A program made the translations under genes and the position numbers. Below, in pieces: positions 1 to 60,116 of a stretch of 64,000 bases of DNA. This DNA comes from Escherichia coli (lineage in GTDB: Bacteria; Pseudomonadota; Gammaproteobacteria; Enterobacterales; Enterobacteriaceae). Below the pieces are notes generated by a model that made no database searches, was not told where the DNA came from, and saw only the letters and a program-made list of their open reading frames with translations. Location of the stretch: assembly GCF_030384885.1 (NCBI RefSeq), contig NZ_CP128613.1; one strand, 5' to 3'. How positions within the stretch are numbered: position 1 is the first letter of the stretch; each line of letters starts with the position of its first letter.

Positions 1-289
1 GCAGCACTGAGTCTACCATGGACATTACACGTTCAACTTCACCACCGAAGTCGGCGTGCCCCGGGGTATCAACGATGTTGATACGGTAATCATTCCATTT
101 GATAGCGGTGTTTTTCGCGAGGATGGTAATCCCACGCTCTTTCTCCAAATCGTTGGAGTCCATCACGCGCTCTTGGGTTTCGGCACGAGAGTCGAACGTA
201 CCAGATTGTTGGAGCAGCTTGTCTACCAGGGTGGTTTTACCATGGTCTACGTGCGCGATGATGGCGATATTACGCAATTTTTCGATCAC
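1..289 (-). CDS. typA: GTP-binding protein TypA/BipA, N-terminal portion only (gene continues beyond window start)
   Basis: Reverse complement of 1-289 translates to a translational-GTPase N-terminus ([16 protein letters not shown]... G1 motif, [15 protein letters not shown]3 motif); initiation appears to be GTG at 287-289. The + strand track ORF 56..337 is the antisense frame of this gene. Confidence 0.85.
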
Positions 290-440
290 AACTTTGCCTC
301 AGGCATTAGAAATAGCGCGTTATTGTACACGGATTAATCGCACTACAAAACAGGATCACAAACATCCTCCGCAAACAAGTATTGCAGAGTCCCTTTGTGA
401 TCGCTTTCACGGAGCATAAAAAGGGTTATCCAAAGGTCAT

Positions 441-523
441 TGCACCAATATGGTGCTTAATGTTTCCATTGAAGCACTATATTGGTGCAACATTCACATC
501 ATGGTGCAGCCCTTTTGCACGAT
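441..523. promoter_or_regulatory. NtrC (NRI) enhancer-like binding sites upstream of glnA
   Basis: TGCACCAATATGGTGCT at 441-457 and GCACTATATTGGTGCAA at 473-489 fit the dyad TGCACCA-N3-TGGTGCA; a weaker copy lies at about 501-523. Position upstream of the glnA sigma-54 promoter matches the known architecture. Confidence 0.7.
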
Positions 524-7238: not shown

Positions 7239-7305
7239 AATGGTTCGTCTTTTAGCCGTTTTATTCAGTATAGATTTGCGGCGGAATCTAACAGAAAGCA
7301 AGCAA

Positions 7306-7549
7306 AGAAAAAAGGCGACAGATTACTCTGTCGCCTTTTTTCCTGACTCATAACCCTTAACGGGTCTTACAATCCTTGCAGGCCGCCAACACACCCTGTT
7401 TTTCCATTAGCCGGAACAATCCGTGTTGATTCCATTTCCGTTTAATTACGTCTCCGGACGTTTGTCTTCCTGACAATCCTCTGTCTTCGCCTCCTGGCGC
7501 TCCTGACCCTCATCCTGAGTCATTGTTCCTGTTAGCGTCCTCGCTCTAT
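7306..7549 (-). ncRNA. csrC: CsrC small RNA (CsrA-sequestering)
   Basis: Minus-strand sequence begins ATAGAGCGAGGACGCTAACAGGAACAATGACTCAGGATGAGGGTCAGGAGCGCCAGGAGG and carries many GGA/AGGA motifs; ends in a hairpin (AGGCGACAG / CTGTCGCCT, 7313-7336) plus U-run. Lies in the yihI-engB intergenic region. Confidence 0.8.
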
Positions 7550-7819
7550 GGGTGCTACTTTACGCCTTTGCTTTAAACAAACAATCAACCGCCATCAGTA
7601 TTTGCACATTTTCAGAGTTTTATATAAAAGCAATTAACTGATTTATATAGCTTATTTGACATGCATCGCAGAATTTTCTCTGCTATTTCGCATAAAGACT
7701 ATCGGCAATGTCTCACAAAGCGTATGGCTTTTACTTACAACGCTCACGCCGAAAAATCCGCCTTTTATTATGGTTCAGGTATAATCGCCGCAAAGCTTTG
7801 ACTGACGGAGACGACCGCT

Positions 7820-8452
7820 TTGACTAATTTGAATTATCAACAGACGCATTTTGTGATGAGTGCGCCTGATATTCGCCACCTACCTTCCGATACCGGAATT
7901 GAAGTGGCTTTTGCAGGCCGTTCCAACGCAGGTAAATCCAGCGCGCTGAACACGCTGACTAACCAGAAAAGCCTGGCGCGGACCTCAAAAACCCCAGGGC
8001 GCACCCAGCTTATCAACCTGTTTGAAGTGGCTGACGGCAAGCGTCTGGTTGACCTGCCCGGCTATGGCTACGCGGAAGTCCCGGAAGAGATGAAGCGCAA
8101 ATGGCAACGCGCGCTCGGCGAATACCTCGAAAAACGTCAGAGCCTGCAAGGCCTGGTGGTACTCATGGATATTCGCCATCCGTTGAAAGACCTCGATCAG
8201 CAGATGATTGAGTGGGCGGTAGACAGTAATATCGCCGTACTGGTGCTGCTGACCAAAGCGGACAAACTGGCAAGCGGCGCACGTAAAGCACAATTGAATA
8301 TGGTGCGTGAAGCAGTGCTGGCGTTTAACGGTGATGTGCAGGTTGAAACGTTCTCTTCGCTGAAGAAGCAAGGCGTGGACAAGCTGCGGCAGAAACTGGA
8401 TACCTGGTTTAGCGAGATGCAGCCTGTCGAAGAAACGCAGGACGGCGAATAA
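7820..8452 (+). CDS. engB: ribosome biogenesis GTP-binding protein EngB/YsxC (YihA)
   Basis: 210-aa ORF with P-loop GRSNAGKSS and the typical EngB fold; apparent TTG initiation at 7820 (track translation MTNLNYQQ), with an in-frame ATG alternative slightly downstream. Confidence 0.9.
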
Positions 8453-16517: not shown

Positions 16518-16586
16518 AGTAATGCTCCTTACTCTTGAGACAGACACGTTAGCAGGGTCAATCCCACAATAAAAGAGGCGATATCG

Positions 16587-17168
16587 GTGAATCTGATGAC
16601 GACGATAACAGGCGTTGTGCTGGCGGGCGGTAAAGCCAGACGAATGGGCGGCGTAGATAAAGGATTGCTTGAATTAAACGGCAAACCATTATGGCAACAT
16701 GTCGCTGACGCGCTTATGACGCAGCTCTCTCACGTCGTGGTTAATGCTAATCGTCATCAGGAAATCTATCAGGCAAGCGGTCTGAAAGTGATTGAAGATA
16801 CACTGGCGGATTACCCAGGCCCTCTGGCAGGAATGCTTTCAGTAATGCAGCAGGAAGCGGGGGAGTGGTTTTTGTTTTGCCCATGCGATACGCCTTACAT
16901 TCCCCCTGATTTAGCTGCCCGGCTTAATCATCAGCGCAAAGATGCGCCTGTCGTGTGGGTCCACGACGGTGAACGCGATCACCCGACTATTGCTCTGGTA
17001 AACCGCGCAATTGAGCCTTTATTACTGGAATATCTGCAAGCAGGAGAACGCCGGGTAATGGCATTTATGCGTCTGGCTGGCGGTCATGCGGTTGATTTCA
17101 GCGATCATAAAGAGGCATTTGTGAACGTGAATACGCCAGAGGAGCTTGCCCGATGGCAAGAAAAGTAA
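16587..17168 (+). CDS. mobA: molybdenum cofactor guanylyltransferase MobA
   Basis: ORF with [11 protein letters not shown] nucleotide-binding motif; apparent GTG initiation at 16587. Confidence 0.93.
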
Positions 17169-23263: not shown

Positions 23264-23809
23264 TTATTTCAGCGTCGGTTTGTCGGTTAAATGGGCGATT
23301 TCTCGGGCGAAATTCGCCACCTGCTGCCAATCGGTATAGACAACTTCTTTGCGCGTATCCGTTTCACCGCCTGACATCTTCATAATCAGCTTGATCATAA
23401 AGCGGTCGTACCAGCGGTAACGTGGATAACGTAGCGCCCCGGCAATGACGGCACAGCGATCGGGACGCCATTGTGAACTCATCAGAAACTTGCGCGCGTA
23501 GCTGTTGGTCTGTGGAGTACGCTTCTCCGGTTTACGCGCCACCAGGTTTACGGAGTAAAAGGCGCTCGGCATCGAATTCAGCCGCGTCGCATGCTTTTTG
23601 ACAAATTCCTGGAACGCAGAGTGGTAGTGACCATAGCGAATAGAAGCACCAATGACCACACGGTCGTAGTTTTCCCACTGTGGTTCTTCAATGCGGTGCA
23701 CATTGGCGACATCCGCCTGGATCCCCAATTCTTTCAGTTCCGAAGCCAGGTAGGCGGCAATCTCGCGCGTTTGTCCGTCCCTTGTTGAGAAAAGAATTAA
23801 TGTTTTCAC
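23264..23809 (-). CDS. hemG: protoporphyrinogen IX dehydrogenase (menaquinone-dependent, flavodoxin-like)
   Basis: 181-aa ORF with flavodoxin-like N-terminus ([18 protein letters not shown]). Confidence 0.95.
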
Positions 23810-35500: not shown

Positions 35501-36016
35501 TTACGGTTTATCACTCGACGAAGGGGAAGGTGCAGCGGTTTTCGGTTCAGCGTCCGCAGCTGGTTTTACCGCCGGCTCTGGCGTGGTTTCTGGCTTCTGT
35601 TGCGGCGAACTGGCCTGCGTTTGTGCAGCGGCAGGCGTTACGCCTTCATGCGCAGCTTCATTATCTTTCACCACCGGGTTATGGATGGTGTGCGCTTCAT
35701 CGCTCGCCTTTTCAGGATCGTTTGCAACGTAGGAACGCTTCATCGACTCCGCGGCCTGGCGTAGTTCATCCATCGACGCTTTCAGTTCGGGCGTCAGGTT
35801 AGTGAGGCTCGCCTTTTCAACCTTTTTCAGGCTGTCCTGAAACTCCTGGAGTTTTAACTCCTGGGTCAGTTCGTTCTGCACCGTTGTCGCCAGTGAACGC
35901 AACGCGCGAATCCAGCCAGCTACCGTTTTTACCGCCACAGGCAGTCGTTGCGGCCCCAGAACGACGAGGCCGATGATGAACACCAATAGCAGTTCGCTAA
36001 AACCGATATCAAACAC
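35501..36016 (-). CDS. tatB: twin-arginine translocase subunit TatB
   Basis: 171-aa ORF with N-terminal TM helix ([26 protein letters not shown]) and Pro/Ala-rich tail. Confidence 0.96.
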
Positions 36017-36367: not shown

Positions 36368-38610
<2,243 letters not shown>

Positions 38611-39473: not shown

Positions 39474-40901
39474 CTAGCGCGACTGCTGATTATATTCATC
39501 ATCGCGTTGATAAGCTTCATCATTCGGCTGCTCCGGTACCGACCGCAGTCGATACTCTTCATCCTGGCTCACCGCTTGTTCAGCCAAATCCGGATTAATC
39601 TCGCGTTTAATTTCTACTCCTAAACCGCGAAACGCTTCTGCCTGCGCCAGCACATTTCCGCGACCTGAAGAGAGTTTTTTCATTGCCTGGCGATAGTTGT
39701 CCTGTGCTTTGTCCAGACTTTGACCAATCGCGGACATATCATCGACAAACAAGCGCATTTTGTCGTACAACTTGCTGGCGCGATCGGCTATTTTCTGGGC
39801 GTTACGACTTTGATGCTCATAGCGCCAGAGGTTGGCGATAGTGCGCAGCGCCACCAGCAGCGTGGTCGGGCTAACCAGCATGATATTGTTTTTCAACGCT
39901 TCGGTGATCAGCTCCGGCTGGCGGTCAAGCGCCAGTAAAAAAGCGGGTTCAACGGGAATAAACATCAGCACGTAATCCAGGGTTCGCAGCCCCGGCAGCT
40001 GTTGATAATCTTTGCGTCCCAGCAAACGGATATGGTTACGCACCGACGCGATATGTTCCTGTAGCGCGCTTTCGCGGGTGTAGTCGTCTTCTGCGTTGAA
40101 ATAGCGTTCATAGGCGACCAGTGTCATTTTTGCGTCGATCACCACATCTTTGCCCTGCGGCAACCGCACGATGACATCCGGCTGCATCCGCGAGCGGGCG
40201 TCATTTTCGATGCTGACCTGGGTTTCATATTCATACCCTTCACGCAGACCGGAAGCCTCCAGCACACGCGTCAATACTACCTCGCCCCAGTTGCCCTGGG
40301 TTTTATTGTCGCCTTTCAGCGCACGCGTCAGGTTGATCGCTTCCTGGGCCATTTGCGCGTTGAGCTGCTGGAGATTGCGTATTTCGTGAGTCAGGGTATG
40401 GCGTTCTTGTGCTTCTTTACCGAAACTGTCCTGAACCTGACGACGAAAACCGTCCAGTTGTTCACGTAGTGGCGACAACAGGCTGTTCAGACTCTGACGG
40501 TTTTGCTCATCAACCCGGCGATTGCTGTGCTCGAAAATACGGTTGGCGAGGTTTTCAAACTGCTCACTGAGGCGCTGTTCGCTGTTGATCATTTGGCGAA
40601 TTTTATCGTCAGCATGTTGCTGTACGGCCTCCATTCGCGTGGTGACTTCACGCAGATCCGCCTCCAGCGAGGTGTTAATGCTTTGCAGACTGCGCACTTC
40701 ATTATTGAGTAACTCGCACTCAGCACGCCAATGTTCGCTTTGGGTAATTTGTTGTTTTGCCGCACTTAACTCCGCGATCATCTCTTCACGTTCAGCGAAT
40801 TGCTCGGCTTTTTGCTGCGCATGCTGATAACTGGCAATCAGCCAGCCAATCGCCACGCTCACCAACGCAATAACTGCGTAAACCATGATTGAGATATCCA
40901 C
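39474..40901 (-). CDS. rmuC: DNA recombination protein RmuC
   Basis: RmuC family with N-terminal TM helix and long coiled-coil; start set at GTG (VDISIMVYAV...) giving about 475 aa, with an ATG alternative 5 codons downstream. Confidence 0.9.
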   Translation of the reverse strand: MDISIMVYAVIALVSVAIGWLIASYQHAQQKAEQFAEREEMIAELSAAKQQITQSEHWRAECELLNNEVRSLQSINTSLEADLREVTTRMEAVQQHADDKIRQMINSEQRLSEQFENLANRIFEHSNRRVDEQNRQSLNSLLSPLREQLDGFRRQVQDSFGKEAQERHTLTHEIRNLQQLNAQMAQEAINLTRALKGDNKTQGNWGEVVLTRVLEASGLREGYEYETQVSIENDARSRMQPDVIVRLPQGKDVVIDAKMTLVAYERYFNAEDDYTRESALQEHIASVRNHIRLLGRKDYQQLPGLRTLDYVLMFIPVEPAFLLALDRQPELITEALKNNIMLVSPTTLLVALRTIANLWRYEHQSRNAQKIADRASKLYDKMRLFVDDMSAIGQSLDKAQDNYRQAMKKLSSGRGNVLAQAEAFRGLGVEIKREINPDLAEQAVSQDEEYRLRSVPEQPNDEAYQRDDEYNQQSR

Positions 40902-41019
40902 AACGCCTCCAGCCTCATTACTTACCCGCACAAAATAGAATTGTGCTGTACAAACGTCCAGTTTGAAAGAAGTTTCCTGCGAGGCGCTACGCAAAACGAT
41001 CCTTAATTTTTATTATTTT

Positions 41020-41055
41020 ATCCCACAATATGAGACGTAGTTTATATTGTGGGAT
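41020..41055. promoter_or_regulatory. perfect inverted repeat, candidate operator upstream of the IclR-family gene
   Basis: ATCCCACAATAT (41020-41031), 12-bp spacer, ATATTGTGGGAT (41044-41055); about 60 bp upstream of the regulator start in the rmuC-divergent intergenic region. Confidence 0.4.
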
Positions 41056-41116
41056 ATATCACCTTTTCCCCACGTCATTATGTGGAACACTTCAGCAATA
41101 TCATCAGGAGAAACGT

Positions 41117-41884
41117 ATGGCAGATACCTCTTCAACCACCGCTGGCGCACAAACGTTATTACGCGGGCTGGCGGTTCTTAATGCTGTTTATAACGGCTGC
41201 CATGACCTGAAAAGTATCGGCGAGTTCACCGGCACGACCCGGAGCACAACCCATCGTTTAGTCACCGTTCTGGTGGAACAACGCTACCTGCGCCACGTCC
41301 CAACGCAGGGCTACCAACTGGGCGCCAAACTGATCGAATTCGGTGCCAGAGCGCTGGAAAGCACCTCGCTGTACGAAATTGCGCTGCCCGTTTTGCAGCG
41401 TCTGGCCCGTTACACCCTGGACACCGTGCATCTGGGGATCGTTGAAGGCGACGAAGTGCTGTATCTGGAGAAGATCAACAGTCAGCGTGGGCTGGAAATG
41501 CGCTCACGCCCAGGCCATCGCATGCCACTGGCAATCACCGGCATCGGCAAGGCATTGATCCTCAACCGAACAGAAGAAGAGTGGCGCACGCTGTTTAAGA
41601 CCTGTGGTGATGAAACAAAACTGGGCACATTTATTCAGAACATGCGTCGTTATGCCGCCAGTGGTTTTGCTTTTGATCTGGAAGAGAACGAGCCGACTAT
41701 CCGTTGCGTTGCAGCGCCGGTTTACAACGCCCGGGATGAAATTGTGGCGGCTATTTCTGTCGCCAGTACCACTACGTATATGTCACTGGCGCGTCTGGAA
41801 GAACTGGCACCTTACGTCAAATCCTGTGCAGAAGAGATATCCGCTGAACTGGGCTGGGGTAAGCACGTCCGCAAAAATAAATAA
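41117..41884 (+). CDS. IclR-family transcriptional regulator
   Basis: 255-aa ORF from MADTSS with SD AGGAGA; N-terminal wHTH (LRGLAVLNAV...IGEFTGTTRSTTHRLVTVLVEQRYL) and C-terminal IclR effector domain pattern. Confidence 0.85.
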   Translation: MADTSSTTAGAQTLLRGLAVLNAVYNGCHDLKSIGEFTGTTRSTTHRLVTVLVEQRYLRHVPTQGYQLGAKLIEFGARALESTSLYEIALPVLQRLARYTLDTVHLGIVEGDEVLYLEKINSQRGLEMRSRPGHRMPLAITGIGKALILNRTEEEWRTLFKTCGDETKLGTFIQNMRRYAASGFAFDLEENEPTIRCVAAPVYNARDEIVAAISVASTTTYMSLARLEELAPYVKSCAEEISAELGWGKHVRKNK

Positions 41885-41907
41885 ACCATGACTAAAGGAA
41901 ACGGCTA

Positions 41908-42912
41908 ATGTCGGGAAACACCTCATTTATTGCCCTGGACTGGGGAACGTCATCGCTTCGGGCATGGCGTTTTGGCGACTCACCAAATCCACAAGAAAAA
42001 CGTGAATTCCCGTGGGGGATCATGAAATTACCCTCCCAGGCAGCAACACGTGAGGACGCTTTCCACGATACGTTTTTACGTGTCTGCGGCGACTGGCTGG
42101 CACAATCCCCATGCCCGATTCTGGCTTGCGGCATGATCGGCAGTGCGCAAGGGTGGCAACCCGCAGCTTATTTACCTTGCCCGGTCACTCTCGAGGGTCT
42201 GGCAAAGCAGTTGACGCCTGTTATCTACCAGCAGCAGACAATGCTGCACATCATTCCCGGCGTGATTAAAGAAGGTGAAATGCCCGAAGTGATGCGTGGC
42301 GAAGAGACACAAATCTTCGGTGCTATCTCGATGGAACCGGCCCTGCAAAACGCGCTCCGCCAGGGTATGCCTGTGCTGATTGGCTTACCTGGCACACATG
42401 CGAAATGGGCGGTAGTTGAAAACAACACCATTACCGATTTTCGAACCTTTATGACAGGCGAGTTATTTGATGTTTTATCCCGCCATTCGATTCTCGGTGC
42501 CACCATGCGTTCGGGAGATGAACCGCACTGGGATGCCTTCGCCCACGGGCTGACAGCGGCACAAGAGCATCATCAGACCGGATTATTATCGACGCTGTTT
42601 TCGACCCGTTCGCGCCTGCTGACCAGTAATCTTACGCCGTCCTCACAGGGGGATTACCTTTCAGGATTACTGATAGGCCATGAATTATGCGGTCTGGCAT
42701 CCAGTTTGCTACGTGATTTACCCGCCACAACACCGATCGCCTTAATCGGTAGCGCCACTCTGAACAGCCGCTATTCACAAGCATTCAGCCACGTTTTTCC
42801 CGACAGACAGCTACACGCCATTCCTAATGCCACTGAACAGGGGTTATGGCGAATCGCCCACGCTGCCGGGCTACTCTCCACCAACGCCAGGGAATGTACT
42901 CATGCCATTTAA
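41908..42912 (+). CDS. 2-dehydro-3-deoxygalactonokinase-like sugar-acid kinase (DgoK family)
   Basis: 334-aa ORF sharing the motifs I recall from DgoK: ALDWGTSSLRAW, MRGEETQ, PGTHAKW, FRTFMTGELF. Confidence 0.85.
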   Translation: MSGNTSFIALDWGTSSLRAWRFGDSPNPQEKREFPWGIMKLPSQAATREDAFHDTFLRVCGDWLAQSPCPILACGMIGSAQGWQPAAYLPCPVTLEGLAKQLTPVIYQQQTMLHIIPGVIKEGEMPEVMRGEETQIFGAISMEPALQNALRQGMPVLIGLPGTHAKWAVVENNTITDFRTFMTGELFDVLSRHSILGATMRSGDEPHWDAFAHGLTAAQEHHQTGLLSTLFSTRSRLLTSNLTPSSQGDYLSGLLIGHELCGLASSLLRDLPATTPIALIGSATLNSRYSQAFSHVFPDRQLHAIPNATEQGLWRIAHAAGLLSTNARECTHAI

Positions 42913-43531
42913 TACGCTTTTGCAAAAAACCGGGTTAGTCGCCATTTTACGCGGCGTGAAACCGGATGAGATTGTCGCCATCGGTGAAAAGCTGTATGCC
43001 GCTGGATTTCGCCTGATTGAGATTCCCATGAACTCGCCGGAGCCGTTGCAAAGTATCAGTTTACTGCGCGACGCCCTGCCTAAGGACTGCCTGGTCGGAG
43101 CCGGAACGGTGCTTTCGGTGGAGCAAGTCGTCGCGGTTAAAGAGGCTGGAGGCCAGATTATCGTAATGCCGCATTGCGATACTGCGGTGATCCGTCGTGC
43201 CCGTGCGCTGGGTATGTATTGTGCGCCTGGCGTCGCTACGCCCACCGAAGCTTTTGCTGCCATTGAACATGGCGCCAATGCCATCAAGCTGTTCCCGGCT
43301 GAACAAATTACGCCTGAAGTCACCAAAGCCTGGCGTGCGGTTATTCCACAATCCGTTCCGATGTTACCGGTTGGCGGTATCACTCCAGACACAATGGCGC
43401 GTTATCTGAGCCACGGCGCAAACGGCTTTGGCCTCGGTTCTGCGCTATATCGCCCCGGCATGACGCCAGAGCAAGTCTATGAAAATGCAGTACTGTTTAT
43501 GAACGCATGGAACAATTTAAATAGCAAATAA
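42902..43531 (+). CDS. 2-dehydro-3-deoxy-6-phosphogalactonate / KDPG-type aldolase (DgoA/Eda family)
   Basis: About 209-aa ORF from MPFNTLLQKTGLVAILRG; class I aldolase TIM-barrel pattern (EIPMNSP, GAGTV, KLFPA, GGIT). Start overlaps the kinase 3' end by 11 bp. Confidence 0.85.
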   Translation: MPFNTLLQKTGLVAILRGVKPDEIVAIGEKLYAAGFRLIEIPMNSPEPLQSISLLRDALPKDCLVGAGTVLSVEQVVAVKEAGGQIIVMPHCDTAVIRRARALGMYCAPGVATPTEAFAAIEHGANAIKLFPAEQITPEVTKAWRAVIPQSVPMLPVGGITPDTMARYLSHGANGFGLGSALYRPGMTPEQVYENAVLFMNAWNNLNSK

Positions 43532-43555
43532 CTGATAAATAAGGATATAAAAGCA

Positions 43556-44530
43556 ATGATAAAACATCTTACCTTACCGAAAAAAATGGCTGCAATGGTA
43601 CTTCTTGCCGGCGCTGCCCTCAGCACTGCGCCTGTGCAGGCGGCCTCCTGGCCAACCAAACAGATCGAGTTAGTCGTACCCTACGCGGCCGGAGGCGGTA
43701 CGGATCTGGTTGCCCGTGCCTTTGCTGATGCCGCCAAAAACCATTTGCCCGTCAGCATCGGGGTTATCAATAAACCTGGCGGTGGCGGCGCTATCGGCCT
43801 GAGTGAAATCGCCGCTGCCCGCCCTAACGGTTACAAAATGGGTTTAGGCACGGTTGAACTGACCACCCTTCCCAGTCTCGGAATGGTGCGTTTTAAAACC
43901 AGCGACTTTAAACCCATTGCCCGTCTGAATGCGGATCCTGCGGCTATCACCGTCCGTGCCGATGCACCGTGGAATAGCTATGAAGAATTTATGACTTACG
44001 CCAAAGCGAATCCCGGAAAAGTACGCATTGGTAACTCAGGCACCGGAGCAATCTGGCATCTGGCGGCAGCTGCACTGGAAGACAAAACGGGCGTGAAGTT
44101 TTCTCATGTCCCATATGACGGCGCAGCCCCTGCCATTACAGGCCTGTTAGGCGGGCATATTGAAGCGGTTTCCGTAAGCCCAGGTGAAGTTATCAATCAT
44201 GTGAAAGGCGGCAAGCTGAAGACACTGGTAGTGATGGCGGATGAACGTATGAAAACCATGCCTGACGTCCCGACGTTAAAAGAGAAAGGCGTTGATCTCT
44301 CCATCGGCACCTGGCGCGGCCTGATTGTGTCGCAAAAAACGCCGCAGGATGTGGTTGATGTTCTGGCTAAGGCCGCAAAAGAGACGGCTGAAGAGCCTGC
44401 ATTCCAGGATGCTCTGCAAAAGTTGAATCTCAACTATGCATGGCTTGATGGTGCCAGCTTCCAGACCCAAATCAACGAACAGGAAAAGTACTTTGACGAG
44501 TTACTAACTCGGCTGGGCTTGAAAAAATAA
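43556..44530 (+). CDS. tripartite tricarboxylate transporter substrate-binding protein (TctC/Bug family)
   Basis: 324-aa ORF with signal peptide (MIKHLTLPKKMAAMVLLAGAALSTAPVQA) and the TctC-type motifs ...VVPYAAGGGTD..., ...NKPGGGGAIG.... Confidence 0.85.
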   Translation: MIKHLTLPKKMAAMVLLAGAALSTAPVQAASWPTKQIELVVPYAAGGGTDLVARAFADAAKNHLPVSIGVINKPGGGGAIGLSEIAAARPNGYKMGLGTVELTTLPSLGMVRFKTSDFKPIARLNADPAAITVRADAPWNSYEEFMTYAKANPGKVRIGNSGTGAIWHLAAAALEDKTGVKFSHVPYDGAAPAITGLLGGHIEAVSVSPGEVINHVKGGKLKTLVVMADERMKTMPDVPTLKEKGVDLSIGTWRGLIVSQKTPQDVVDVLAKAAKETAEEPAFQDALQKLNLNYAWLDGASFQTQINEQEKYFDELLTRLGLKK

Positions 44531-44546
44531 TCCCGAGGTACGGTCG

Positions 44547-45053
44547 ATGAACACAAAACAGTCTGTTGCTCAACTCGCCGTACCGCACCGCAAGCGCTTT
44601 TCATCCACTGTGGTGGTGGCGCTGTTACTTTGTGTGGTTGCTGGCGCGGTGATAATTAATGCCGCTGATTTTCCAGCAACTGCCATTGAAACGGATCCCG
44701 GTGCAAGTGCCTTCCCTACTTTCTATGCCTGCGCTCTGATTGTGCTCGCTGTCTTACTGGTGATACGCGATCTTTTGCTGGCAAAACCAGTCCCTTGCGC
44801 CAACGCACAGGAAAAACCGGCATTCAGGAAAACGGCAACGGGAATTGCGGCAACCGCGTTTTATATTGTGGCGATGAGCTACTGCGGTTATCTCATTACT
44901 ACTCCTGTTTTCCTCATCGTCATTATGACGTTGATGGGCTACAGGCGATGGGTACTCACACCGGGTATTGCGCTGCTGTTAACGGCAATCCTCTGGTTGC
45001 TGTTTGTCGAAGCGTTACAGGTGCCATTGCCTGTCGGCACATTTTTCGAATAA
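44547..45053 (+). CDS. tripartite tricarboxylate transporter small membrane subunit (TctB-like)
   Basis: 168-aa hydrophobic protein with about 4 TM segments, positioned between tctC-like and tctA-like genes. Confidence 0.75.
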   Translation: MNTKQSVAQLAVPHRKRFSSTVVVALLLCVVAGAVIINAADFPATAIETDPGASAFPTFYACALIVLAVLLVIRDLLLAKPVPCANAQEKPAFRKTATGIAATAFYIVAMSYCGYLITTPVFLIVIMTLMGYRRWVLTPGIALLLTAILWLLFVEALQVPLPVGTFFE

Positions 45054-45065
45054 CAGGGGCCTGCA

Positions 45066-46556
45066 ATGTTTGAAAGTGAACTTTTAACTCAGGGGTTTTC
45101 GACATTACTCAGTAATCCTCAGGCGCTGCTGTTTGCCACGTTTGGAGTGATACTGGGTATTATGATTGGCGCTCTGCCTGGCCTGACAGCGACCATGGGT
45201 GTGGCGATTTTGCTGCCTTTCACCTACGGCATGGAGCCTGTTTCTGGCTTGTTGATGATTTGCGGTGTCTTTTTTGGTGGTGTGTATGGTGGTTCTATCA
45301 CCGCAATTTTGCTCAAAATTCCCGGTACGCCTGCCGCCGCTGCCACCGCCATTGACGGTTATGAGTTAACGAAGCAGGGAAAAGCCGGGCTGGCATTAAG
45401 TGCCGCCACGTTCTCTTCTTTTAGCGGTGGAACGCTCAGCATTATCGTATTGATGTTTCTCTCTCCGGTACTTGCCAGTTGGGCGTTGAAATTTAGTGCC
45501 TCGGAGTCCTTCGCCCTGGCAACCTTCGGACTAAGTATTATTGCCAGTATTTCCGGTGAGTCACTGATTAAAGGGCTGATTGCCGGGGTTGGCGGATTAC
45601 TGATCGCAACGATAGGCCTCGATCCGATGGGCGGTTTTCCACGCTTTACGGGCGGGTTTGTGGAACTGATGAATGTGCCATTTATCCCGGTGATGATTGG
45701 TCTGTTTGCTGCTTCAGAAGCGTTCCGTTCTATGGAACAAAATCAGCATATTCGTCAGAGCGCGAACGTGGCTATCGGCAGTCTGTTACTGCCCTGGCAA
45801 ACGCTACGCCGCATCGCATTAACCATTTTGCGCTCATCAGGATTAGGGGTTTTTATCGGCATGATCCCCGGTGCGGGGGCAGATATTGCAGCTTTTGTTG
45901 CCTATAACGAAACTCGTCGTTTCAGTAAGACGCCTGAAAACTTTGGTAAGGGTGAGATTAAGGCGGTGGCCTCCTGTGAGGCAGGCGCGAATGGCTGCAC
46001 CGGTGGCGCATTGTTACCTATGCTGACGTTGGGGATCCCAGGCGATGCGGTAACTGCCATCATGCTGGGCGCGTTAACGTTACAAGGGATGCAGCCAGGC
46101 CCACTGATGTTTACCGACCACGGCGATATGGTTTATACGCTGTTTGTCGGCATGATCTTTTGTTACTTCATGCTGCTAGTTCTTGGACTGCTCTCTTTGA
46201 AAGTCATCGGTAACGTGGTGAAGATCCCCGGCAATATTCTCACGCCGATGATCCTCGCACTTTGTGTGGTCGGGACTTATGCGTTGAACAATAGCCTGTT
46301 TGATGTTGGCATTATGCTGATTGCAGGCGTGGTGGGCTATTTCATGCAAAAAGGGGGGTATCCGGCATCACCCGTAGTGCTGGCATTGATTATGGGGCCA
46401 ATGGCGGAAAGTAATTTTCGCCGTGCGCTGTCGCTTTCTGGTGGGTCACTCGACTTTCTGTATACCCGACCGATAACCCTGGCATTGCTGACACTGGCAG
46501 CCTTTACGCTACTGACGCCAATAATACGCAAAATTATGCGCTTACGGCGTCAGTAA
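45066..46556 (+). CDS. tripartite tricarboxylate transporter large permease (TctA family)
   Basis: 496-aa polytopic membrane protein with Gly-rich TM segments typical of TctA (GALPGLTATMGVAILLPFTYGM, GGSITAILLKIPGTPAAAAT). Confidence 0.9.
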   Translation: MFESELLTQGFSTLLSNPQALLFATFGVILGIMIGALPGLTATMGVAILLPFTYGMEPVSGLLMICGVFFGGVYGGSITAILLKIPGTPAAAATAIDGYELTKQGKAGLALSAATFSSFSGGTLSIIVLMFLSPVLASWALKFSASESFALATFGLSIIASISGESLIKGLIAGVGGLLIATIGLDPMGGFPRFTGGFVELMNVPFIPVMIGLFAASEAFRSMEQNQHIRQSANVAIGSLLLPWQTLRRIALTILRSSGLGVFIGMIPGAGADIAAFVAYNETRRFSKTPENFGKGEIKAVASCEAGANGCTGGALLPMLTLGIPGDAVTAIMLGALTLQGMQPGPLMFTDHGDMVYTLFVGMIFCYFMLLVLGLLSLKVIGNVVKIPGNILTPMILALCVVGTYALNNSLFDVGIMLIAGVVGYFMQKGGYPASPVVLALIMGPMAESNFRRALSLSGGSLDFLYTRPITLALLTLAAFTLLTPIIRKIMRLRRQ

Positions 46557-46589
46557 TTGATATCGCTCCCCGACGTTGGGGAGTATGAG

Positions 46590-46740
46590 ACTGATGACAA
46601 ACGCTAAATTGCCTGATGCGCTGCGCTTATCAGGCCTACCACAGAAATGCAATATATTGAATTTGCATGCTTTTGTAGGCCGGGTAAGGCGATCACGCCG
46701 CATCCGGCATGAACAAAGCACACGTTAACAACAATCGGAA
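46590..46740. repeat. REP/BIME palindromic repeat cluster
   Basis: GCCTGATGCGCTGCGCTTATCAGGCCTAC, TGTAGGCCGGGTAAGGCGATCACGCCGCATCCGGC units between the transporter gene and udp. Confidence 0.55.
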
Positions 46741-48996: not shown

Positions 48997-50145
48997 ATGA
49001 GTGATATTATCTACCTGACCATAACCGGAGAACAACACGGATGTATTTCCTCTCGTTGTGGAACGAGCACATCAATAGGTAATCGCTGGCAGATTGGTCA
49101 TGAAGATGAAATCTTCGCATTCTCGCTCTCTAATAGTATTACGAATACAGGAAAAGGGTCACATTTGCATGGCCTTAGTTTCTGTAAGTTGATTGACAAA
49201 AGCTCCCCGTTACTTATTAACGCTATTAACAATAACGAGCAGTTGTTCATGGAGTTTGACTTCTATCGGATCAATAGATTTGGTCGATGGGAGAAATATT
49301 ACAACATTCAACTCCGCGGCGCGCTCTTATCAGCAATCAATCACCTGTTTACGGAGAACAATCTGGATACAGAAACCATCACTGTCAGTTATGAATATAT
49401 ACTCTCCAGGCATCTGATTGCTAATACTGAATTTAGTTATTTGGCATTTCCCGATAACTACAATCGTCTGTTTATACCACGGCCAAAAACTAAAGATGAT
49501 AATGGCCTCAAAACACTCAATAGTAAAGCTGTTGGCAGACTGCTTGCTGCTGGCGGCATATACAATGGGAATATCGAAGGATTCAGGGAAACAGCAAACA
49601 AGTTGGGGGGAGATGCACCTGCTGGTTACGATCAAGTTATGGATAACAAAGGGTTACTCATCGCTGGTGCTTCAATAGTTGCTGGAGCAGTTCTGGGGAG
49701 AATGAGACTCCCTGATTTGGAATCACTTGAGCATTTCGGAGCCAGAGGAGCAGTATCAGGAAGACCATTTAATCCCGACCTTGCCGGTGGTCCAATAGAA
49801 AATCTGACGACAGATGGCGTAACAATCAACAGGGAAGGTATCGCTATTGTTGAAAAACACATAGCCAGATTTGGTCATGACCCTGTAAATGAAGTGATGA
49901 TCAATAGACTGAAAGACATTGAGAAAGGAAAAATCCCCCCAGAACAAGTAGATCTTAACTTCTATACTCATGAATGTCGGGAATATCAGCGTTACTGTAA
50001 TCTTGGTTGGGAAACAGGACAACCTGATGGTGACGCAGGCTATGCACTCTGGAATCATACGCATACTGCTACTCTAGAAGATTATAAACTTAAGGGAGAA
50101 CTTAATGACTTATACCACCAGGACGCACTTGACTATGATAACTGA
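48997..50145 (+). CDS. Hcp (T6SS tube protein, TssD) fused to a C-terminal extension; candidate evolved-Hcp toxin effector
   Basis: 382-aa ORF. The N-terminal ~160 aa follow the Hcp pattern (ITGEQHG...NRW..GHEDEIFAFS...KLIDKSSPLLINAI...EFDFYRIN) as I recall it; then a Gly-rich linker and a ~130-aa His/Cys-containing C-terminal region. Low GC and AT-rich upstream region. Confidence 0.8.
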   Translation: MSDIIYLTITGEQHGCISSRCGTSTSIGNRWQIGHEDEIFAFSLSNSITNTGKGSHLHGLSFCKLIDKSSPLLINAINNNEQLFMEFDFYRINRFGRWEKYYNIQLRGALLSAINHLFTENNLDTETITVSYEYILSRHLIANTEFSYLAFPDNYNRLFIPRPKTKDDNGLKTLNSKAVGRLLAAGGIYNGNIEGFRETANKLGGDAPAGYDQVMDNKGLLIAGASIVAGAVLGRMRLPDLESLEHFGARGAVSGRPFNPDLAGGPIENLTTDGVTINREGIAIVEKHIARFGHDPVNEVMINRLKDIEKGKIPPEQVDLNFYTHECREYQRYCNLGWETGQPDGDAGYALWNHTHTATLEDYKLKGELNDLYHQDALDYDN

Positions 50146-54117: not shown

Positions 54118-54904
54118 TAAACGTTGGCCAGTGCGGCTGTTGGTGCCAGATAGCCAGGTTAACCAACAGCCCTGCCGGAACGTGCATATTATTCATAATG
54201 CCCAGCGTTCCGGCGTCCACCTGAGTCGCGCCGTAGTTCCACATAAAGTAGCCAATACCGGAAGCCACCACGCCAAGAAACACCAGAATGCCCCATTGCA
54301 GCGTGGTTTGCGGCATTTTCTGCGCATTTCCCAGCAAGAACCATGCAATCACCGCCACCAGGAACGCGCCAAGATAGAACCACGCAAAGGCGTTATGCTG
54401 CGGCATCGGGCGAGTTTCCATCAGGCGTTTGTAACCCACCATGCCGATGGCAAAAGTGATATTGGAGAGTTGTACCAGTAACAGGCCGGTCCAGAAGTGG
54501 TCGGTGACCTGATCATAGCGAATAATTCCGGCACCAATCACCGCCAACAAGGCGCTAAAAGCATAGCCCCAGCGCAGACGGCGCTTACTCATGATGTCAT
54601 AAATCAGCGTGATGTAGAGCGGAGTCAGTACGGTGAACAGCAACAGCTCGGAGACCGTCAGGTAGAGATAGGCGCGAAAACTCAGCATATACATCACGCC
54701 AAGCTGCATCGCGCCCACCAGCATATACAGGCCAACCGTTTTCAGGCTATTGCCACGGGTACGCAGAAACGGCAGAAACACGAGTGCCGCCAGGCCAACG
54801 CGCACCAGCACTGCAAAATAGCTATCGACGTGCCCCGCAAGGTACTCGCCATAAAAGCTAAAGGAGAAGGCCCACAGAATCGTGGTGATGATAAGTAGCG
54901 CCAC
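54005..54904 (-). CDS. yigM: DMT-family inner membrane transporter YigM (BioP-like)
   Basis: 299-aa ten-TM EamA-type protein; its 3' end overlaps the metR 3' end on the opposite strand. Confidence 0.9.
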
Positions 54905-58286: not shown

Positions 58287-60116
58287 CTACTCTTCGTCAT
58301 CGCCATCGACATGCGCACGGATAAGTGCCATAAACGGTTTGCCAAAGCGTTCCAGCTTGCGCATCCCAACGCCGTTAACGCTGAGCATTTCGCTGGCGGA
58401 GATCGGCATCTGTTCCGCCATCTCAATCAAGGTCGCATCGTTAAACACCACATACGGCGGGACATTACTTTCATCGGCAATCGATTTACGCAGTTTGCGT
58501 AATTTAGCGAACAGTTTACGATCGTAATTGCCGCCGAACGATTTCTGCATCGCCTTCGGTTTAAGCGCCACAATACGCGGCACGGCAAGTTGTAAAGAGG
58601 ATTCGCCGCGCAACACAGGCCGTGCGGCTTCTGTCAGTTGTAATGCCGAATGCTGGGCGATGTTTTGCGTCACCAGACCGAGGTGGATCAACTGGCGGAT
58701 TACGCTCACCCAGTGCTCATGACTTTTATCGCGACCCATGCCGTAGACTTTCAGTTTGTCATGACCATAGTCGCGGATTCGCTGGTTATTGGCGCCGCGA
58801 ATCACTTCCACTACATAGCCCATACCAAAACGCTGATTCACACGACCAATGGTGGAAAGCGCAATCTGCGCATCGGTTGAACCATCGTATTGTTTCGGCG
58901 GATCGAGGCAGATATCGCAGTTCCCGCACGGCTCCTGCCGCCCTTCGCCAAAGTAGTTCAGCAGCACCAGACGACGGCAAGTTTGCGCTTCGGCAAACGC
59001 GCCCATCGCATTGAGTTTATGGCGCTCGATATCCTGCAACTGCCCCTGCGGCTTCTCTTCCAGACAACGGCGCAGCCACGCCATATCAGCCGGATCGTAA
59101 AACAGCATCGCTTCCGCGGGCAGGCCATCACGCCCGGCGCGACCGGTTTCCTGATAATAGGATTCGATATTGCGTGGAATATCAAAGTGAACCACGAAGC
59201 GGACGTTAGGCTTGTTGATGCCCATGCCGAACGCTACCGTCGCCACCACAATTTGCAGGTCATCACGCTGGAATTTTTCCTGCACGTCCGCACGGACATC
59301 GTTTTCAAGCCCGGCGTGATAAGCCGCTGCGCTGATACCCTTGCTTTGCAGACGTGCGGCGGTGTCTTCTACTTTCGCACGACTATTACAGTAAATAATC
59401 CCCGACTTACCGCGTTGTTCCTGCACGTAGCGCATCAACTGATCGAGCGGTTTGAATTTCTCCATCAGCATGTAGCGAATGTTCGGGCGATCAAAACTGC
59501 TGATTTGAATCAGCGGATCGTTCAGCCCCAGCAGGCGCACGATATCCTGCCGCGTGGTGTCGTCGGCGGTGGCGGTTAGCGCCATAAACGGCAGAGTAGG
59601 AAAACGCTGACGCAGCTGACCGAGCGCGGCGTATTCCGGGCGGAAATCGTGCCCCCATTGGGAGATACAGTGCGCTTCATCAACGGCTAATAACACTGGA
59701 TTCCAGTGCGCCAGATGCTCAAGGAAGTTATCCAGCATCAGGCGTTCCGGCGCGATATACAGCAGGCGGATTTGCCCGGTGCGGCAGCCTGTCATTACTT
59801 CAAGCTGCTGCTCGCGGGTTTGCGTCGAGTTAAGGCACGCCGCCGCCACGCCGTTGGCCTGTAGCTGATCCACCTGATCTTTCATCAACGAAATCAGTGG
59901 TGAAACAACCACGGTAAGACCGTTTAGCAGTAAGGCAGGAATTTGATAGCAAAGGGATTTTCCGCCACCAGTGGGCATGACGACCAGGCAATCGCTACCG
60001 GAAAGTACGGTGTCGATAATCTCTTCCTGGCCGGGGCGAAACTGTTGGTAGCCAAAGGTTTCTTGTAAAACCTGTTTAGCCCCGGACTCCAGATTCAACA
60101 CTTCCGCCTGCGCCAC
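58287..60116 (-). CDS. recQ: ATP-dependent DNA helicase RecQ
   Basis: 609-aa ORF with helicase motifs ([16 protein letters not shown]), zinc-binding cluster (CGNCDIC) and C-terminal HRDC region. Confidence 0.97.

Follow-up and report, generated by a model that had tools for sequence, protein, structure and literature searches.

The annotated GTG and TTG codons of typA (bipA), engB (yihA), mobA, and rmuC are, with high confidence, the genuine primary start sites of these four Escherichia coli genes, each belonging to an ordinary, SD-led initiation site, while the ATG codons located nearby encode internal methionines. An SD motif is found 4-8 nt 5' of all four starts (GAGG with a 7-nt, GGAGA with an 8-nt, AGAGG with an 8-nt, and GGAGG with a 4-nt spacer for typA, engB, mobA, and rmuC, respectively). 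In relatives, the start codon is kept at the homologous position and coding-type substitution begins there. The upstream frame is closed or unconserved in each case, and the N-termini typical of the respective protein families fit the GTG and TTG starts (BipA, EngB, and MobA when compared with PDB entries and homologues, RmuC when compared with homologous proteins). All four starts are already known from current K-12 and RefSeq annotation.

Results

Non-ATG start codons are not enriched in the window

The window, i.e. the complete 64,000-nt stretch of E. coli DNA analysed here, displays the gene order typA-glnALG-hemN-yihI-engB-polA ... mobAB-rrnA-hemG ... tatABCD-ubiB/J/E-rmuC ... metE-recQ-pldA. 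Over its first 3 kb, the best match is strain 2013C-4282 of E. coli (NZ_CP027579.1) at 100%, with the remaining E. coli genomes at 95-99%, and only 4 SNPs separate the window from NZ_CP027579.1 across the first 42 kb. Annotated starts were taken from the RefSeq/PGAP annotation of the near-identical NZ_CP027579.1 and from K-12 MG1655 (NC_000913.3). The species comparison covered 50-80 Enterobacteriaceae/Erwiniaceae species (typA, 53; engB, 80; mobA, 69) and, for rmuC, eight lineages. The 3' tail of 16S rRNA, GAUCACCUCCUUA, was taken from the window's own rrs; spacer values obtained from RNA duplexfold were skewed by bulged extensions, and explicit motif and spacer coordinates were used in their place.

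Among the 55 annotated CDSs of the window, 47 start with ATG and seven with GTG (typA, mobA, hemG, tatB, rmuC, bioP, and recQ), while engB is the sole TTG starter. Start codon usage in E. coli has been reported as 83/14/3% for ATG/GTG/TTG (~17% non-ATG), and non-ATG starts account for ~18% in 34 well-annotated genomes (Hecht et al., preprint). Given that eight non-ATG starts out of 55 (14.5% vs ~17-18% expected; binomial P(X>=8) = 0.74-0.80) sit close to this genome average, such starts are not enriched in the window. The first-pass annotation had listed four genes with non-ATG starts, and the coordinates and strands given for typA (GTG at 287..289, minus strand), engB (TTG at 7820..7822, plus strand), mobA (GTG at 16587..16589, plus strand), and rmuC (GTG at 40899..40901, minus strand) all coincide with the CDS starts in NZ_CP027579.1 and NC_000913.3. 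The list was incomplete, though, as half of the cases had been left out: hemG (GTG at 23807..23809), tatB (GTG at 36014..36016), bioP (GTG at 54902..54904), and recQ (GTG at 60114..60116), all annotated on the minus strand.

We also note a 382-aa TssD/Hcp-like ORF at 48997-50145 (plus strand), which is intact in the window and annotated as 'frameshifted' in NZ_CP027579.1. Its poly-C run near 49,940 carries one C more in the window (C6 vs C5), a difference that may stem from phase variation of the tract or from a sequencing error in the homopolymer. K-12 lacks this gene, and ysgA adjoins metE there.

The GTG start of typA is invariant across species

The start region of typA reads tGAGGcaaagttGTG. 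GTG is found at the start codon in 53 of 53 species, and the SD sequence GAGG (297..300, minus strand), together with its 7-nt spacer CAAAGTT, is invariant or nearly so among them. The frame is closed by a TGA (299-301, minus strand; -12 relative to the start) that overlaps the SD. Similarly, 51 of the 53 species carry an in-frame stop codon at most 45 nt 5' of GTG with no start codon in between, and upstream indels among the species disrupt the frame 5' of the start. The sole nearby alternative is a start-like TTG at codon 5 (275..277, minus strand); 27 species carry TTG and 26 carry CTG there, which rules out codon 5 as a conserved start. The first in-frame ATG of typA is codon 43 (161-163), located past the GTPase P-loop AHVDHGKT. 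Homology of the typA product to the GTPase domains of EF-G, LepA, and EF2 sets in at residue 2-5, and a later typA start is therefore impossible.

The typA start codon underwent no changes on the species tree. However, the four-fold sites of the gene average only 3.9 changes and 14% of them have none, so that the invariance of GTG is indistinguishable from the generally slow synonymous evolution of typA and is by itself not evidence for a selected weak codon. We also considered a special start-codon mechanism associated with the conserved typA leader. This idea was rejected because the whole glnA-typA intergenic region is >90% conserved throughout the 53 species and typA synonymous sites evolve slowly.

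Upstream of typA and on the same strand (region 343-478), the Rfam model of the ES222 sRNA matches at 371-478 (minus strand). The match is followed by a strong hairpin, GAUCACAAA...UUUGUGAUC, and a U-rich tract, which are terminator- or attenuator-like in appearance. The fold z-score of 260-410 is -2.5.

The TTG start of engB is conserved and experimentally supported

The engB start region reads TGA ctg acG GAG Acg acc gct TTG. Here, the SD sequence GGAGA (7807..7811, plus strand; 8-nt spacer) stands out as conserved among variable non-coding flanks, and an in-frame TGA (7799-7801; -21) shuts the upstream frame. Across 80 species, the start codon is TTG in 74 and GTG in six (five Enterobacter genomes and Silvania), and never ATG. 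Directly 3' of TTG, third codon positions become variable: conservation per codon position is 0.96/0.90/0.77 3' of TTG, compared with a flat 0.58 on its 5' side, and this pattern indicates that the coding constraint of engB starts at TTG. The ATG at codon 13 (7856..7858, plus strand), which was the annotated start in K-12 before 2014, is not a start codon: ATG occupies this position in 18 of 79 species, whereas the others mostly carry ACC, and also ACT, ACG, CTC, CTT, or ATC. No SD motif is present upstream of codon 13. Moreover, for solved EngB structures of distant bacteria, the alignment with the E. coli protein begins at residue 6-9 of the latter, and initiation at codon 13 would therefore cut into the conserved EngB fold.

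The TTG start has already been mapped experimentally. For K-12 yihA, Nakahigashi et al. (2016, DNA Res, PMC4909307, Table S2 row 57) replaced the annotated ATG start by the TTG located 36 nt upstream. The same table lists TetRP read depths of 181/190/153 at TTG vs 0/0.36/0 at the 2006 ATG, and its "N'-peptide found" column reads "1. new annotation" for this gene. Between -29 and +60 of the start, K-12 and the window share the same sequence; a single SNP separates them at -30. What is new here for engB is the conservation of the start across ~80 species.

To judge the pace at which this codon evolves, we compared it with the gene's own four-fold sites in the same species (n=50). The first position of the start codon shows a single parsimony change (T to G) on the 80-species tree, while the four-fold sites average 20 changes (minimum 2), or 9.7 when only transversions are counted. 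Three of the 50 sites have at most one transversion, which corresponds to an empirical rank of ~0.06; the Poisson P is 6e-4, and both values have to be read with the phylogenetic relatedness of the species in mind. Since the positions immediately 5' of TTG vary across species, the constraint falls on the start codon itself. By empirical rank, the signal is modest, and these comparisons are suggestive, not conclusive, of a weak engB start maintained by selection.

Not far from engB, PGAP placed a pseudo-CDS ('hypothetical protein, frameshifted; internal stop') at 7357-7523. It lies inside the CsrC sRNA gene (7296-7549, minus strand; Rfam RF00084, 278 bits) and is probably a spurious call.

The start codon of mobA switches among GTG, ATG, and TTG

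For mobA, whose start region reads aAGAGGcgatatcgGTGaatctgATG, no start-like codon lies between the preceding stop and GTG, and the SD sequence AGAGG (16574..16578, plus strand) precedes GTG with an 8-nt spacer. In nearly all species compared, the SD is kept as AAAGAGG at a spacing of 7-11 nt. The starts anchored by this SD in 69 species comprise 45 GTG, 18 ATG (Klebsiella, Raoultella, Pantoea, and others), and six TTG codons, and the start codon experienced eight state changes on the 69-species tree. Judged from this conserved context, GTG appears to be the primary start of mobA. That the start switches among GTG, ATG, and TTG argues against a selected weak codon in this gene.

An in-frame ATG at the offset of codon 4 (16596..16598, plus strand) is found in only four genomes, two from Escherichia and two others; in Salmonella and Citrobacter, codon 4 is GAT. 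In E. coli, the GTG start is itself part of a GGTGA motif located 5 nt 5' of this ATG, with a predicted 16S-tail pairing of -8.2 kcal/mol. Minor secondary initiation at codon 4, restricted to Escherichia, is thus possible. The MobA chains deposited in the PDB start with MNLMTTIT, which reflects only the annotation used in cloning. According to the title of an earlier study, the mob locus shows very low expression (Iobbi-Nivol et al., 1995).

At the other end of the gene, the ATG of mobB overlaps the 3' end of mobA by 16 nt (17153-17168, plus strand). TetRP data led to the mobB start of K-12 being moved 15 nt upstream, to this same ATG (Nakahigashi et al., 2016, PMC4909307, Table S2 row 56).

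The GTG start of rmuC is shared by eight lineages

The rmuC start region reads GGAGGcgttGTGgatatctcaatcATG. At the DNA level, GTG followed by GAT (Asp) is present in eight of eight lineages. The SD sequence GGAGG (40906..40910, minus strand) is separated from GTG by a short 4-nt spacer, and GGAGG, GGGGG, or GGGGA are found at the same site in other genera. RmuC N-termini across genera follow the pattern M-D-[IFT]-[SAT]-[IL], with M, L, or I at residue 6, and JGI records of RmuC in which the first residue is given as encoded have V there, corresponding to GTG. Codon 6 (40884..40886, minus strand) is ATG in the window but not a conserved start, with CTT, ATT, or ATC in its place in Pseudocitrobacter, Kosakonia, Scandinavium, and another Escherichia lineage; no SD was found within range of this codon. 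Gene models of Citrobacter rmuC from the same genomes differ by annotation pipeline, including 476-aa GTG models (P0013/P0014) and a 471-aa ATG model (P0042). Across the eight lineages available at the DNA level, the comparative data favour GTG over codon 6 ATG as the probable start.

Two further start-like codons located upstream, GTG at 40931 and TTG at 40994 (40929..40994, minus strand), lengthen the rmuC ORF in this strain only. We rejected both as starts, as they are brought into frame in this strain alone via a 1-nt indel. In K-12, an in-frame TAA lies seven codons 5' of GTG, and the 1-nt indel relative to the window maps just upstream of the SD. Indels set K-12 and six further lineages apart from the window in this region. 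An in-frame stop codon at most 10 codons 5' of GTG is shared by K-12, Citrobacter, Pseudocitrobacter, Kosakonia, Scandinavium, and another Escherichia lineage; in Salmonella, the stop codon is 22 codons away. The indel is part of a divergent patch of ~14 nt at 40911-40925 (minus strand), just 5' of the SD, which reads aatgaggctggagg in the window vs tgttgcgtcaggagg in K-12, with no resemblance between the two, a 1-nt length difference, and identical flanks. In this strain, the patch opens the upstream frame and gives rise to a second SD-like GAGG. The upstream extension of rmuC is a strain-specific accident of the indel.

The region between rmuC and udp (41,000-46,600) encodes an IclR-family regulator, a 2-dehydro-3-deoxygalactonokinase, a KDPGal aldolase, and a TctCBA tripartite tricarboxylate transporter. 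K-12 lacks this block, and udp directly follows rmuC. On the other side of rmuC, ubiJ contains in its 3' part a match to the Rfam 'Erse' (EsrE) sRNA (38005-38256, minus strand; 318 bits), which is likewise annotated in K-12.

Discussion

The four starts are best explained by canonical initiation. The 3' tail of 16S rRNA would pair with GAGG, GGAGA, AGAGG, or GGAGG and position the 30S subunit, allowing fMet-tRNA to read GUG or UUG in the P site, and each protein would start with formyl-methionine. We find no difference from the canonical GUG and UUG initiation of E. coli (~14% GUG, 3% UUG): typA, engB, mobA, and rmuC share its SD-led fMet-tRNA start, its usual frequency, and starts annotated in K-12, and are ordinary members of this class. 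For engB, the codon is identical to the TTG of the yihA re-annotation (Nakahigashi et al., 2016, PMC4909307), while the window comes from a different E. coli strain.

The first-pass annotation had considered the true starts uncertain owing to an in-frame ATG near each of them. Such an ATG does exist in engB (codon 13), mobA (codon 4), and rmuC (codon 6). For typA, where the first in-frame ATG is codon 43, the premise is wrong and the doubt falls with it. In the other three genes the doubt has been largely settled, because the downstream ATGs give way to non-start codons in most related genera; some ambiguity is left by the disagreement of gene callers on Citrobacter rmuC and by the GGTGA motif before codon 4 of E. 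coli mobA. Two of the checks suggested at the time can be answered: SD spacing is 4-8 nt at every one of the four starts, and for engB, published TetRP data and an N-terminal peptide put the start at TTG and not at the downstream ATG. The remark that non-ATG starts often indicate translational down-tuning is fair as a generality; within these four genes, data back it for engB only. In sum, the original observation was correct but routine, with one slip (the ATG of typA) and an over-general interpretation.

Could translation nevertheless begin at the downstream ATG in at least one of engB, mobA, and rmuC, with GTG or TTG over-extending the ORF? ATG is the commonest start codon, engB was annotated at its ATG in K-12 until 2014, some callers chose 471 instead of 476 aa for Citrobacter rmuC, and codon 4 of mobA has GGTGA 5 nt upstream. 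We consider this scenario very improbable: the ATGs are unconserved (18 of 79 species for engB, four genomes for mobA, and Leu or Ile codons in several genera for rmuC), the conserved SDs are too distant from them (17 nt in mobA, 19 nt in rmuC, and 44 nt in engB), coding-type conservation starts at GTG or TTG, the TetRP signal at the engB ATG is essentially zero, and typA has no such ATG at all. A related scenario invokes dual initiation in Escherichia, with mobA and possibly rmuC being translated from both GTG and ATG to yield two proteoforms 3-5 residues apart. The GGTGA motif of mobA, 5 nt from ATG4 and with its predicted 16S pairing of -8.2 kcal/mol, would be compatible with this view. So would published reports that paired starts at close spacing occur commonly in E. 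coli, as TetRP detected signal at the two sites of 22 out of 67 re-examined genes and TRAINSPOTTER points the same way. As in the alternative-start genes known from Ribo-RET and TRAINSPOTTER, mobA and rmuC of E. coli carry an in-frame start-like codon 3-5 codons downstream. However, this second codon is unconserved in both genes, and the hallmark of dual-start genes, a conserved second start with its own SD, is absent from mobA (ATG4 in four genomes), rmuC (ATG6 without an SD), and engB (ATG13 without an SD). Given that the second start of mobA is lineage-specific, functional selection of a shorter proteoform is unlikely, and we regard dual initiation as a whole as improbable, albeit less so than exclusive use of a downstream ATG. 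Primary initiation at the annotated GTG and TTG codons remains the preferred reading. Regarding published initiation data, the TRAINSPOTTER supplements returned no match for typA, mobA, or rmuC by gene name, accession, b-number, or peptide, and the supplements of the Salmonella riboproteogenomics study and of Giess et al. gave no hits for these three genes either. A literature search on the bipA start codon, the mobA start, and the mob locus retrieved nothing specific besides the title of Iobbi-Nivol et al. (1995).

Whether the choice of GTG or TTG carries a function is a separate question. GUG and UUG lower translational output relative to AUG. In reporter assays, they yield roughly 10-100% of AUG output (Hecht et al., preprint). 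Across prokaryotes, purifying selection acts weakly to maintain AUG, and stronger SDs tend to compensate for sub-optimal starts (Belinky et al., 2017). The non-ATG codons could accordingly be a neutral mutational residue without any tuning, retained under weak start-codon selection in genes of low expression, and we hold the chances of this account to be about even. The eight start switches of mobA fit well with it, as do the overall weakness of start-codon selection (Belinky et al., 2017) and the 14% of typA four-fold sites that equal the zero changes of its start codon. The exception is engB: position 1 of its start changed once, while its four-fold sites average 9.7 transversions, and ATG never arose there despite AUG being favoured in general. 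Lowered output through GUG or UUG may thus have been selected for in engB alone (one change to GTG, and never ATG, in 80 species); that selection actively maintains the weak TTG of this essential gene, which encodes a ribosome-assembly GTPase, throughout Enterobacteriaceae and Erwiniaceae is a tentative proposal, which we judge to be possible and still rather doubtful.

Regulated non-canonical starts with demonstrated feedback are found in infC, where AUU mediates IF3 autoregulation, and in pcnB, which also uses AUU. These genes and engB have in common that a sub-optimal start was retained in evolution. In contrast to infC and pcnB, which combine AUU with feedback, engB employs TTG, a canonical start, and we know of no feedback of engB on its own start. 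AUU start usage is also mentioned by Hecht et al. (preprint). Features that define dual-start genes or infC-type AUU starts are absent from all four genes studied here.

Beyond annotation hygiene, the significance of these results is small: the four non-ATG starts can be trusted, with experimental support for the TTG of engB, and gene models that begin at a downstream ATG, such as the 471-aa RmuC of Citrobacter and the pre-2014 198-aa YihA, are truncations. One point that specialists might pursue is the retention of UUG on engB in ~80 species, which runs counter to the general trend toward AUG. If the engB start is indeed kept weak by selection, excess EngB would be harmful, and the level of the protein would be capped by its start codon and not by the promoter or the SD.
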